A stretch of 64,000 nt of DNA from Candidatus Poribacteria bacterium (GTDB lineage Bacteria; Poribacteria; WGA-4E; PCPOR2b). Of the stretch, positions 27,985 to 32,634 are shown in pieces. The DNA lies in NCBI GenBank assembly GCA_022822005.1, contig JAJECO010000095.1, positions 360 to 64,359 on the forward strand, read 5' to 3'. The notes beneath the pieces were generated by a model that searched no databases, was not told where the DNA came from, and was given only the letters and a program-made list of their open reading frames with translations. A program made the position numbers and the translations under genes. Positions within the stretch are counted from its first letter, which is position 1. The number at the start of each line of letters is the position of its first letter.

Positions 27985-29046
27985 TTGATTACCAGTGCAG
28001 AGCAGATCACACCGCAATGGCTGACTAACCGTTTTCAACAGAAGGGGCACCTTTCACACCACACGGTAACTGACGTGCAGATTGGAGAGACATTTGAATC
28101 AACCGCTGCCTTTTTCACACGGTTGAAAGCGACCTACTCCACTAAATCGGAGGATAGTCCCCATACCGATCTGGTATTCAAGGATTATCGGCAAGGTTGG
28201 TTTGGAGGTGGTATTGCGGAATCAGTGTTCTTCAACGAAATTGTGGCTCAAACCCCAGATCCACCGGTCTTTCGCTGCTACGACTTTGATTATGACCGTG
28301 ACGCCCGTCAATGCTATCTTATCCTTGAAGATGCCTCAATAACACACGCCGAAACGCCGTCCAAGGCGGAAGGGTTTACCGCTGCTCTCTATAAACAGAT
28401 CATTGATGAATTGTTGAAATTTCATGCTCAATGGTGGGAGCACCCGCGAATTTCACAAGCTGACTTTCTGCGGGGTAAAGGGGGACCGCTCCGAATGGTG
28501 GATGCGGCTACATCTGAGATTACAGCGAGCTACTGTCAACACTGGCGAGAAACGCTGCTTCCTCAATTTGCTGAGAAAGCTCAGGACGAATTCTCGCAAG
28601 AGATGTTTGATTTTGTATTGCACGCTATTAACGGCTGGAAACGATTATACTCCCAACGCATCAAAGATGGCAAGGCGTTAACGCTTCTCCACGGTGACCT
28701 GCATCAATGGAATATCTTTTACCCCAAAAACCGAGCAACAGACCGGCTTTATTTTTTCGACTGGGAGACCTATAAGCGGGGGATTGGACCATATGACCTC
28801 TGTTACTTGATCGGAGGCGGATCTTCACAGCAGCGGCGCGAAATCGAGAAGGATCTGCTTCGTTACTATCACGATGGTCTTGTGAATGGTGGGGTATTAG
28901 GCTACAGTTGGGAAGATTGCGTCTATGACTATCGACTCTCGGTGATTGCCACCCTGTTTCCTCCGATTGGTTGGCAAGACATGTACCGATTCAAACCTCG
29001 GCAAATTCAGTTCGAAGATTGGAATTGTCAAGAATTGCTGGAATAA
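27985..29046 (+). CDS. Aminoglycoside/choline/ecdysteroid kinase-like phosphotransferase
   Basis: LILED, HAQWW, Brenner motif LLHGDLHQWNI, FFDWE, YDLCY. Confidence 0.8.
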   Translation: MITSAEQITPQWLTNRFQQKGHLSHHTVTDVQIGETFESTAAFFTRLKATYSTKSEDSPHTDLVFKDYRQGWFGGGIAESVFFNEIVAQTPDPPVFRCYDFDYDRDARQCYLILEDASITHAETPSKAEGFTAALYKQIIDELLKFHAQWWEHPRISQADFLRGKGGPLRMVDAATSEITASYCQHWRETLLPQFAEKAQDEFSQEMFDFVLHAINGWKRLYSQRIKDGKALTLLHGDLHQWNIFYPKNRATDRLYFFDWETYKRGIGPYDLCYLIGGGSSQQRREIEKDLLRYYHDGLVNGGVLGYSWEDCVYDYRLSVIATLFPPIGWQDMYRFKPRQIQFEDWNCQELLE

Positions 29047-29143
29047 TCGGTTGCCTTGACCGTGCTTTGGAATTGGTGAATCTTTGGTAAACTCCTTTGT
29101 AGTCCTAATCTGTTTTATCCTTTGTTTCATATTGGAGTCAAAT

Positions 29144-29422
29144 ATGCCTAAATTTGTTTCTGCTCATATTATTGCCTGCATGACACGACAGGATGTCGAA
29201 AGACTCGCCAAACGATTTATCGATGATGAAAGCGACGGGGTCAAGAGCTTGAAGGTGCAGTGCGATACAGTCCTCGGTCGAATGGTGTGCGAATGGGAAG
29301 CGCCGGATCGAGATACCCTCGTGGATTGGTTGAAAATGCGGCATGTCCATATTCGCGGAGGCGGTGAGTGGGTGATGCGCGTGCAGCTCGAAACGGTGGA
29401 CAATCAGGTTGCAAGGCTGTAA
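29144..29422 (+). CDS. DUF4242-like small protein
   Basis: GGAG before ATG 29144; MPKFVSAH...GRMVCEWEAPDRDTLVDWL pattern. Confidence 0.55.
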   Translation: MPKFVSAHIIACMTRQDVERLAKRFIDDESDGVKSLKVQCDTVLGRMVCEWEAPDRDTLVDWLKMRHVHIRGGGEWVMRVQLETVDNQVARL

Positions 29423-29499
29423 GAACAGTTAGTTCAGAAGAGCCGGTGTAATGTAAAGAATGGAGAGCGCATCTTGCTTCACGGATAAGGAAGCTCATT

Positions 29500-30339
29500 G
29501 TGCATTACCTTACGCGCCAAATTGCTTTTGAAGCCTCACACTGTTGTCGTATCCCTGAACTCAGTGATGCGGAAAACTACGCCCTGTTTGGGGTAGCTGC
29601 CAACCCCAATAGTCATGGACATAATTATGTATTGGATGCAACGGTCAAGGGCGAGCTTAACCCTGAACACGGGATGGTCATCAATATTGCCGATCTGGAC
29701 CAGGTTCTGAGGGAAGAAGTTGTTGCCTATTACGATCACAAGCATATTAACCTACAACATCCCACCTTTGCGGATAACCGGCACCTTCAACCGACGATCA
29801 AGAATTTAGCAATCCAAATTTGGGATGCGATTGAGCCGCATCTCAAAGGGACAATCTTACACCGGATTCGGCTGCATGAGGATTCAGCCCTATTTGCTGA
29901 TTATTATGGAGAGGGGCAGATGGTCTATCTCACAAAAGTTTATGAATTCAGTGCATCGCATCGATTACACAGTCCAGAACTCAGCGATGTGGAAAACCGC
30001 GAAATCTTCGGAAAGTGTAACAATTTCTACGGTCACGGGCACAACTATGTCCTTGAAGTAATGATAAGAGGTGAGGTGGACCCCAGAACTGGAATGATTG
30101 CCGATTTAGACTATCTTGATGAAACGATTCAGAAACAGGTCCACGGACGATTTGATCACAAGCATCTTAACTTGGATACGCCTGAGTTTGAGAAACTCAA
30201 TCCAACTTCTGAGAATTTTGTGAAAGTGCTTTGGGAGATTATTGAACCGAATCTGAAGCCAATTCAACTACACCGGCTTCGATTGAGAGAAACCCCCAAG
30301 AATCACTTTGATTACTACGGAGACGAAATTCAGTTGTGA
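29500..30339 (+). CDS. Tandem double-domain 6-pyruvoyl-tetrahydropterin synthase (PTPS-II-like)
   Basis: Two T-fold repeats, each with F.ASH and HGHNY; the second has [12 protein letters not shown] (C-X5-HGH). Confidence 0.88.
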
Positions 30340-30929
30340 AAATCTACCACGCAGACTCAATTGACAACGGAACCACCGCCGCAGATCCGAAACTTGAGTA
30401 CATCTATACGCAGATGTTGGAGAATATTGGTGAAGATCCAACAAGGGAAGGTGTCCTAAAAACACCGCAACGTGCAGCGAAAGCCTTTCAGTTTTTGACG
30501 CAGGGATACGACCAGAATGTCGAAGAAATTGTGAACGATGCTATCTTCAACGAAGAGTACGACGAAATGGTGATCGTTAAAGACATTGAGTGTTATAGCC
30601 TTTGCGAACACCATCTTTTACCATTTTTCGGCAAGTGTCACGTTGGGTATATTCCTCGCAAGAAAATCATTGGGCTGAGTAAAATTCCAAGGGTCGTGGA
30701 TATGTTTGCTCGTCGCCTGCAAGTGCAGGAGAGACTGACGAAGCAGATTGCGGAAGCGTTACAGGACGTATTGAATCCCGCTGGGGTTGCTGTCGTCATT
30801 GAAGCACAGCATCTATGTATGATGGTTCGTGGCGTACAGAAGCAGCACTCGCAAACGATGACCAATGTTATGCTCGGCGAGTTTCGAGATAAGATTTCAA
30901 CTCGGACGGAGTTCATGAGATGTATTTAG
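30336..30929 (+). CDS. folE: GTP cyclohydrolase I
   Basis: [51 protein letters not shown]. Confidence 0.97.
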
Positions 30930-30967
30930 ATGATACCCAGTCGTAACGACACAACACCTTGAAGGGG

Positions 30968-31687
30968 ATGGAGATGCTGAAGGACAAAGTGGGCATTATA
31001 ACAGGAGCATCACGGGGTATTGGTCGCGCAACCGCTGTGGCGTTTGCACACGCCGGTGCGACAGTTGTCCTTGCATCGCGTACGCAGCATGACCTCGAAA
31101 CGGTCGCCGATCTCATACGCGCAGAGGGCGGGGAAGCTCTCGTTGTACCAGCGGATGTGACACAGGCGGAAGCGGTAGAAACCCTGGTCAATCGAACGCT
31201 ACAGGCTTACGGTCAAATCGACATCCTCGTGAACAATGCGGGGACCGGTGTTTTCGAACCCATTGTGGATTCAGATCCTGAAGTGTGGACTCAAGTAGTC
31301 GCCTCCAACCTCCAGAGCACCTACCTCTGCTCGAAATATGTGTTACCTTCTATGCTGGAGCGTCAATCCGGCCAAATCATCAATGTGTTGTCGATCGCTG
31401 CAAAAGTTGCATTCAAAGCCTCAAGCGCGTATTGTGCAGCGAAGGCGGGGGCACTGGCATTTACGAAAGTCCTGGCAGATGAGGTTAGGGATCAAAAAAT
31501 CCGTGTCACAGCGATCTCGCCTGGATCGGTTGACACACCGTTCTGGAACGAGATTGAGGGACACCCTGAGCTGAATTTGATGTTGAAGCCGGAACATGTT
31601 GCGGAAACCATTCTTTTTGCTGCGACGCAGCCGGATGGTATGGTGACCGACGAAATAGTTGTAACGCCACCGCTTGGCATTTTGTGA
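30968..31687 (+). CDS. SDR oxidoreductase, candidate bacterial sepiapterin reductase
   Basis: TGASRGIG, NNAG, YCAAK, PGSVDTPFW; directly follows PTPS-folE. Confidence 0.75.
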   Translation: MEMLKDKVGIITGASRGIGRATAVAFAHAGATVVLASRTQHDLETVADLIRAEGGEALVVPADVTQAEAVETLVNRTLQAYGQIDILVNNAGTGVFEPIVDSDPEVWTQVVASNLQSTYLCSKYVLPSMLERQSGQIINVLSIAAKVAFKASSAYCAAKAGALAFTKVLADEVRDQKIRVTAISPGSVDTPFWNEIEGHPELNLMLKPEHVAETILFAATQPDGMVTDEIVVTPPLGIL

Positions 31688-31731
31688 AAAAGAGATAGGC
31701 GAACCGAACAAACAATAGGAAAATGGGGTTT

Positions 31732-31940
31732 TATGGTGAATTCTACAATTACTTATACACTTTCGACGTGCAACTAACCCCCTAAATCCCCCTTGTCAGG
31801 GGGACTTGATACGTAACCCCCTAAATCCTCCTTCCGCAAGGCGGAATCCCGATAAATCGGGACTTGTCAGGGGGACTTTGGAAACTTCTCGAAGGGCGGA
31901 GCTATTGGTAAATGTCCACTTATTTCTATAATTCACTATA
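31732..31940. mobile_element. MITE copy 3 (209 bp)
   Basis: Same ends as 25278-25447 plus an extra 39-bp internal hairpin unit taaccccctaaatcccccttgtcagggggacttgatacg. Confidence 0.75.
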
Positions 31941-31986
31941 ATTATCTTAGATGTTTTCTTACGATCTATCATGATTGAGGTAAATA

Positions 31987-32634
31987 ATGACTAAATTGGA
32001 ACAGATGCAGCGGGTCGAATCCTGCGGGGTTGTGGCCATCATTCGGGCTAATAGTTCAGCTGAATTAATTGAGGTTGCATCAGCAATTAAAGCGGGTGGT
32101 GTCGATCTGATTGAAGTGACGATGACAACCCCGAATGCTTTGAGCGTTATCAGTGATGTCGCTGCTCGATATGGAGACGAAGTGCTTGTAGGCGTTGGAT
32201 CGGTTCTCGATGCCGAAACCGCCCGGGCAGCAATGCTGGCAGGTGCGGAGTTTGTTGTCAGCCCCGTGACGAAACCTGACGTTATTGAAATCTGTAATCG
32301 ATACAGTAAAATCGTGATGCCGGGCGCATTTACGCCGACGGAGATTTTGGCTGCATGGGAAGCTGGCGCGGATTATGTGAAAGTTTTCCCATCAAGTGGG
32401 GTAGGACCGAGCTATATCAAAGATGTGAAAGCACCGTTGCCGCATATCCCGCTGATACCTACCGGGGGTGTGAGTGTTGATAATGCTGGCGAATTCATCA
32501 AAGCAGGCTCAGCCGCGCTTGGTGTTGGCAGCGCGCTTGTCAACAATCAGGTGATTGCTGATGGACGATTCGATCTCCTGACGGAGAAAGCGAAACTGTT
32601 GGTAGAAGCCGTGGGCGCCGCCAAAGCTGATTGA
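31987..32634 (+). CDS. eda: KDPG/KHG aldolase
   Basis: VVAIIR, IEVTMTTP, GVGSVLD, FVVSP, PGAFTPTEI, VKVFP, PTGGV. Confidence 0.92.
   Translation: MTKLEQMQRVESCGVVAIIRANSSAELIEVASAIKAGGVDLIEVTMTTPNALSVISDVAARYGDEVLVGVGSVLDAETARAAMLAGAEFVVSPVTKPDVIEICNRYSKIVMPGAFTPTEILAAWEAGADYVKVFPSSGVGPSYIKDVKAPLPHIPLIPTGGVSVDNAGEFIKAGSAALGVGSALVNNQVIADGRFDLLTEKAKLLVEAVGAAKAD

Follow-up and report, generated by a model that had tools for sequence, protein, structure and literature searches.

What do three co-oriented genes on the forward strand of a sponge symbiont's chromosome, encoding between them the enzymes of a route to tetrahydrobiopterin (BH4), make, and for which enzymes do they make it? The genes lie at positions 29500–31687 of a 64,000-nucleotide stretch of Candidatus Poribacteria DNA, the window, which corresponds to C38:360–64359 in an assembly of 6.0 Mb and 97 contigs (completeness 97.8%, contamination 2.8%); Candidatus Poribacteria are sponge symbionts. 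They encode a 6-pyruvoyl-tetrahydropterin synthase (PTPS), the GTP cyclohydrolase I FolE, and a short-chain dehydrogenase/reductase (SDR). An earlier sequence-only reading of the window had proposed a probable complete BH4 operon. All three biosynthesis enzymes are indeed encoded together; the word “complete” is doubtful, as the genome holds no known BH4 user and neither FolE nor the PTPS appears dedicated to this route. On balance, we regard it as probable that the module belongs to a known bacterial kind, a biopterin-type pathway with a dual-domain PTPS of the PTPS-II type, the FolE and PTPS of which also serve folate and queuosine synthesis. Family membership and conserved gene linkage are the grounds for this assignment.

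The PTPS gene (29500–30339, + strand), with its GTG start at 29500 preceded by the ribosome-binding site GGAAG, encodes a 279-residue protein that matches PF01242 twice (E 7e-60, 200.7 bits in total; 116 and 89 bits for the two domains in the genome search). The protein is an internal tandem duplication, residues 1–140 and 141–279 being 44% identical (E 3e-41). The N-terminal domain (29500..29919, + strand) possesses zinc-binding His14, His39, and His41, the Asp79–His80 pair, and Glu127, with Ala33 at the position of the catalytic Cys. The C-terminal domain (29920..30339, + strand), of the PTPS-II type, possesses His154, Cys173 within a C-X5-HGH motif, His179, His181, Asp219, His220, and Glu264. 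The zinc-binding His triad, the Asp-His pair, and the pterin-anchoring Glu are kept in both domains; C-X5-HGH is found in the second only. The sequence-only reading had recorded this motif correctly, while missing both the tandem duplication and the Ala at the first-domain Cys position.

Assignment of the catalytic domain to the PTPS-II type is supported by the C-X5-HGH motif, by the PTPS-II insertion, and by 45% identity to rat PTPS. Residues 143–274 match the rat enzyme (PDB 1b66) with an E value of 4e-32 and 45% identity by BLASTP, and the C-terminal domain is likewise 45% identical to C. elegans PTPS, as compared to 37% for E. coli QueD. In an alignment with six QueDs (one from E. coli, three from basal lineages of the Poribacteria phylum, and one each from Armatimonadota and Omnitrophota), the PTPS-II insertion of 8–10 residues is seen in both PTPS domains; C-X3-HGH is present in all six QueDs, and neither it nor C-X4-HGH is present in either PTPS domain. 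The two domains are unequally conserved among 97 tandem PTPS, a set made up of the window protein and 96 representatives at 50% identity, 255–310 residues in length. The C-domain catalytic set is retained in 76–95 of the 97 (Cys in 90, His in 90–95, Asp in 86, Glu in 93). The N-domain is relaxed, with the zinc His residues in 56–64 proteins and the Cys position occupied by Cys in 18, Ala in 17, and Glu in 11. The PTPS-III type, in which the enzyme replaces FolB, was ruled out; a normal FolB is encoded at C94:1093–1428, and ExxHGH occurs in neither domain.

Multi-domain PTPS, tandem and triple, are widespread, occurring in Omnitrophota, Armatimonadota, Chloroflexota, Nitrospirota, and others; 1,984 PTPS representatives reached an E value of 1e-10 or better. 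The kind is a known one: single- or dual-domain PTPS orthologs were held responsible for bacterial BH4 synthesis by Kong et al. (2006, FEBS Lett 580:4900, as described in PMC5041015), so that a dual-domain PTPS for BH4 in bacteria has been in print since 2006. Our literature search found no description of tandem PTPS beyond that study. The earlier remark that BH4 is uncommon in bacteria proved overstated, PTPS-II-type proteins making up 21% of the 34,387 PF01242 sequences in a published survey (PMC9894224).

Immediately downstream, FolE (30336–30929, + strand; 197 residues) is matched by TIGR00063 at 264.6 bits against a cut-off of 181.6. The PTPS gene ends in CAG TTG TGA and FolE starts with the GTG at 30336, giving the 4-nucleotide overlap (GTGA, 30336–30339) that the sequence-only reading had described. 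A tblastn search of the genome revealed no second FolE, and FolE2 (PF02649) is absent from it too. The window FolE is the genome's only GTP cyclohydrolase I and would therefore also feed folate and queuosine synthesis; FolB in the same genome points to folate synthesis.

The third gene (30959–31687, + strand) encodes a classical NADP(H)-type SDR of 242 residues (adh_short, E 8.5e-59; 230.6 bits against PRK07454, for which the cut-off is 234). Its probable start is the ATG at 30974, preceded by the ribosome-binding site GAAGGGGA, rather than the TTG at 30959. The strings SIAAKVAFKASSAYCAAK, PGSVDTPFW, and LMLKPEHVA, quoted earlier as reminiscent of the Chlorobium tepidum sepiapterin reductase (cSR, PDB 2bd0), are all present, and the protein further contains TGASRGIG, Arg41, the tetrad N117-S145-Y158-K162, F99, and W196. 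The four tetrad residues are invariant in an alignment (A1) that was built, as was a profile, from seven cluster-linked SDRs. Similarity to cSR extends over the full length (E 1.7e-38, 35% identity). Supangat et al. reportedly found in 2006 that Phe99 and Trp196 of cSR sandwich the pterin ring. In the window SDR, F99 and W196 occupy the positions aligned with Phe99 of 2bd0, within GxGxF, and with the Trp of its TPMW, which is residue 197 by chain index. All seven cluster-linked SDRs have W196, and 13 of the 14 SDR paralogues in this genome most similar to the window SDR lack it. Judged by these likenesses, the SDR is a candidate sepiapterin reductase of the Chlorobium kind. A FolM or PTR1-type pteridine reductase was considered and rejected, as neither was among the best 25 of 233 NCBIfam matches and the glycine motif is TGASRGIG.

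The association of the three genes extends well beyond the window. Cross-locus counts within Poribacteria refer to the best 80 loci for PTPS, all 80 from Candidatus Poribacteria; the tandem PTPS, FolE, and SDR genes are linked in 78 of them, with SDR identities of 56–96%. Stronger evidence comes from lineages outside the sponge-associated order, in which gene orders differ and 4-nucleotide overlaps are frequent. A genome of the same class and another family (G007) has a tandem PTPS (40% identity) overlapped by 4 nucleotides by an SDR (44% identity), with no FolE between the two. Tandem PTPS, FolE, and SDR genes follow one another, tightly packed, in Armatimonadota AP024674.1; Ardenticatena maritima (Chloroflexota) has a 418-residue triple PTPS followed by FolE and SDR, and a metagenome contig has the order FolE, triple PTPS, SDR (L104:6426–8925). 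In addition to the multi-domain PTPS, genomes of Armatimonadota, Ardenticatena, and Omnitrophota possess a separate single-domain COG0720 gene, which in Armatimonadota has C-X3-HGH and heads a queD-queE-queC operon and in Omnitrophota is a C-X3-HGH QueD. The multi-domain PTPS of these organisms is therefore not QueD, and it travels with the SDR. In the SDR tree, the Poribacteria, G007, and Armatimonadota proteins group together in a single clade (support 92/91), the L104 SDR pairs with cSR (98/94), and the cluster-linked SDRs and cSR all fall outside the FabG-like clade (99/96).

Taken as a pathway, the module would operate in three steps. FolE would convert GTP to 7,8-dihydroneopterin triphosphate, from which the dual-domain PTPS would generate 6-pyruvoyl-tetrahydropterin; the SDR, with NADPH, would then reduce the diketo side chain to furnish a tetrahydrobiopterin-type pterin, either L-erythro or L-threo. 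By analogy with the architecture of rat PTPS, the PTPS chain probably assembles as a trimer that mimics the usual hexamer. Such a trimer would hold three canonical sites, each combining the zinc-binding His residues, Cys, and Glu of the C-domain with the Asp-His pair of the N-domain, and three further sites devoid of Cys.

The genome places a second demand on the same protein. Queuosine synthesis is represented by QueC (212.7 bits, cut-off 150.3), QueF (160.6 bits, cut-off 86.9), Tgt, QueA, and a divergent QueE, the five best NCBIfam matches of which are all QueE models, each below its cut-off. No QueD was found: the tandem PTPS is the sole PF01242 match in the genome, as it is in an unfiltered hmmsearch over 53,055 six-frame open reading frames (ORFs), and it is the genome's only COG0720 protein. 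The same holds for about 60 of 81 Poribacteria genomes of high quality, which include closed chromosomes: the tandem PTPS is all they have, so that a gap in the assembly does not explain the missing QueD. An intact QueC is found in 80 of these 81. Three genomes basal in the Poribacteria phylum differ, having one QueD, with C-X3-HGH, and lacking the tandem PTPS. Because the tandem PTPS is the sole COG0720 protein in a genome with queC, queE, queF, tgt, and queA, it most likely also makes 6-carboxy-tetrahydropterin (CPH4), doing the job of QueD. The genes queC (contig C24), queE (C79), and that of the tandem PTPS (C38) are not clustered. In a genome with a single FolE and a single COG0720 protein, the module can hardly serve BH4 synthesis alone. 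The sequence-only reading had set its BH4 operon against a PTPS producing CPH4 on which queC and queE depend; the genome now points part of the way to just such a PTPS, at the level of genome inference only.

Supply of CPH4 by the tandem PTPS is plausible because COG0720 enzymes are promiscuous (PMC5041015; PMC9894224) and QueD tolerates a shifted Cys (PMC9894224); the bifunctional PTPS-I/III enzymes set a precedent for bifunctionality within COG0720 (PMC5041015). The need for a CPH4 source speaks for QueD function of the tandem PTPS, not for its membership in the QueD family. We give somewhat less than an even chance to the fuller proposal that the Poribacteria dual-domain PTPS-II is bifunctional, producing both 6-pyruvoyl-tetrahydropterin and CPH4, and has displaced the QueD of the basal members, which would make it a PTPS-I/II hybrid class; the literature search found no description of such a class. 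Speculatively, the work might be divided such that the pyruvoyl intermediate is handled at the pseudo-hexamer's three sites devoid of Cys.

Several observations weigh against a biopterin-type pathway that also supplies CPH4. Sequence comparison does not single out cSR as the nearest relative of the SDR: FabG 4rzh scores slightly above 2bd0, the oxidoreductase 3rkr equals it, and 2bd0, third among the matches to the single SDR sequence, comes seventh when the profile of cluster-linked SDRs is used (190 bits, the top match having 207). Nor does the SDR tree join the Poribacteria clade to cSR. The resemblance to cSR proposed earlier is real and spans the whole protein, but it does not exceed that to 4rzh or 3rkr; in the tree, only the L104 SDR joins cSR. 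Synteny inside Poribacteria, taken by itself, is weak evidence, since the whole neighborhood is collinear there, from the rhodanese gene through the HpcH aldolase gene. Aromatic amino-acid hydroxylase (PF00351), nitric oxide synthase (NOS; PF02898), and FA_hydroxylase of the alkylglycerol-monooxygenase type (PF04116) are absent from the genome, so the earlier statement that the window contains no BH4 consumer holds and extends, for these three, to the genome as a whole. Finally, neither PTPS domain has QueD features, and the argument for a CPH4 role is solely one of a missing alternative.

A search for a further candidate user, DUF6421 (PF19985), gave no match in the genome, but the control search was silent too, making this result uninformative. 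Two pterin-4a-carbinolamine dehydratase genes are present (C79:36876–37160 and C35:25833–26111), and no hydroxylase candidate was seen in their neighborhoods when the translations were read by eye. By the same by-eye reading, one of the two has a MoeB-like gene close by, and the other is flanked by genes resembling pyrK and pyrD. Pterin-4a-carbinolamine dehydratases occur also in organisms without hydroxylases. A GT1 gene (C24:1625–2992, + strand), situated 190 bp upstream of queC (C24:3185–3874), was examined as a pterin glycosyltransferase and rejected, its best PDB matches being GtfB/GtfD and a sterol glucosyltransferase.

Could the genes be queuosine and folate housekeeping and nothing more? 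The tandem protein would then be the QueD of this lineage, the SDR an unrelated neighbor, and no BH4-type pterin would be made. A sole COG0720 protein and a sole FolE alongside a full queuosine pathway fit such a picture, as do the lack of a BH4 consumer in the genome, the name 6-carboxytetrahydropterin synthase that NCBI gives to relatives of the tandem PTPS, and its 114 bits against the QueD model TIGR03367 (cut-off 89), a score summed over two domains. We nevertheless find this improbable, given the adjacency of PTPS and SDR, with 4-nucleotide overlaps, in four other lineages with differing gene orders, and given the separate single-domain COG0720 gene kept by three other phyla, a C-X3-HGH QueD in Armatimonadota (in a que operon) and in Omnitrophota. 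Arguing in the same direction are, in the catalytic domain, the PTPS-II motif and insertion and, in the SDR, the retained pterin-stacking residues of cSR.

Conversely, the module could be dedicated to BH4, with CPH4 supplied by an unrecognized non-homologous enzyme, or by a pterin intermediate that is cleaved spontaneously or in a side reaction. Both domains are PTPS-II-like and not QueD-like, and organisms that do have a QueD keep it apart from the module, in keeping with this proposal. We know of no CPH4 synthase outside COG0720, which counts against it, and regard it as unlikely. A CPH4 source must exist, given QueC in 80 of the 81 Poribacteria genomes, and the promiscuity of COG0720 together with the tolerance of QueD to a shifted Cys (PMC9894224) tells against looking for that source elsewhere. 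Very unlikely, lastly, is a different pterin end product, with the SDR acting on another side chain or reduction stopping partway, to yield a glycosylated or exported photoprotectant, antioxidant, or signal: the lack of a cofactor-using enzyme in the genome, an overall SDR–cSR kinship settled by neither profile ranking nor tree, and the conversion of BH4 to glycosides in cyanobacteria and Chlorobium (PMC3546692) speak for it, whereas no glycosyltransferase lies in or beside the module in any of the loci (Poribacteria, Armatimonadota, Ardenticatena, L104), the GT1 beside queC resembles Gtf and sterol glucosyltransferases, and the two pterin-4a-carbinolamine dehydratase genes hint at a hydroxylase that uses the pterin.

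The biopterin-type pathway that we favor, with its FolE and PTPS shared with folate and queuosine synthesis, can be placed among known systems. As described in PMC5041015, the PTPS-II of Synechococcus sp. PCC 7942, to which the work of Kong et al. (2006) relates, is alike in having two PTPS domains per chain, a C-X5-HGH catalytic domain, and a suggested place in the route from dihydroneopterin triphosphate to BH4; Synechococcus differs, by the same source, in keeping a separate PTPS-I/QueD, which the Poribacteria genome lacks. With cSR, the window SDR shares the classical SDR form of ~240 residues, the N-S-Y-K tetrad, the Phe of GxGxF, and the Trp of TP-x-W. Identity is just 35%, which is not above that to FabG or other SDRs, and the two have no common tree group. 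The animal BH4 pathway (GCH1, PTS, SPR) comprises the same three reaction types in the same order, whereas here the PTPS is fused in tandem with a Cys-less half, the reductase is of bacterial type, the genes are clustered, and neither hydroxylase nor NOS is encoded. QueD/PTPS-I is a member of the same T-fold family, COG0720, and acts on the same substrate, and the logic of the genome demands QueD function of the tandem PTPS; the latter differs in having the PTPS-II insertion, in having neither C-X3-HGH nor C-X4-HGH, and in not being clustered with queC and queE. The literature search found no paper linking Poribacteria with tetrahydrobiopterin. New here are the retention of the queuosine pathway by Poribacteria without QueD and the finding that the genome has no FolE besides that of the module.

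Other lineages offered further observations on multi-domain PTPS. In the triple PTPS of Ardenticatena maritima (L100:7001–8257), the middle domain has C-X3-HGH (GVCTRTHGH) and the last domain C-X5-HGH; the single-domain homologue of this organism has neither Cys nor HGH (EVHTHSY). QueD and PTPS-II sites may be combined there in one chain. In Armatimonadota (L095:2410–7004) and Omnitrophota (L097:2469–6977), ABC-transporter genes for an ATPase and two BPD_transp_2 permeases run into the tandem PTPS gene, and the Armatimonadota set has a Bmp-family binding protein ahead of it and a 4-nucleotide overlap with the PTPS gene. This arrangement suggests a link to uptake of a nucleoside or pterin precursor. 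Some genomes of the same genus as the window's carry a third, divergent PTPS-like gene, as at L106:5308–5694 (genome G013), which encodes 128 residues, has HNHYW where HGH would be expected, lacks the Cys, and is followed by a 615-residue ORF; the window's genome has no such gene.

Around the module itself, a small ORF of ~93 residues (29141–29422, + strand) lies directly 5′ of the PTPS gene and is kept in most Poribacteria loci at 52–96% identity. It has no family match, the SCO4226-like nickel-responsive family giving a sub-threshold match only (E 0.087). Between it and the rhodanese gene lies an EcKL/APH-like kinase gene (27985–29046, + strand), found at this position in the closest relatives only (loci L001–L015 except L008 and L013) and missing from remoter Poribacteria loci. 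An insert of ~3 kb between SDR and Eda in most Poribacteria holds two opposite-strand genes, read by eye as DUF21-CBS-CorC type, and was set aside as unrelated. A promoter and terminator scan of 28800–32200 returned sites no commoner than in shuffled sequence.

Public records label these PTPS 6-carboxytetrahydropterin synthase; the evidence points instead to a biopterin-type module, found in Poribacteria, Armatimonadota, Chloroflexota, and further phyla. Should a PTPS-II be able to replace QueD, the C-X3 versus C-X5 motif split of COG0720 would be unreliable for predicting queuosine capacity. The module also raises the question of what a BH4-type pterin is for in bacteria with none of the known BH4-dependent enzymes. 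Transfer of microbial BH4 to an animal host has precedent (PMC5227711), and, as a speculation, the Poribacteria pterin could matter to the sponge host.

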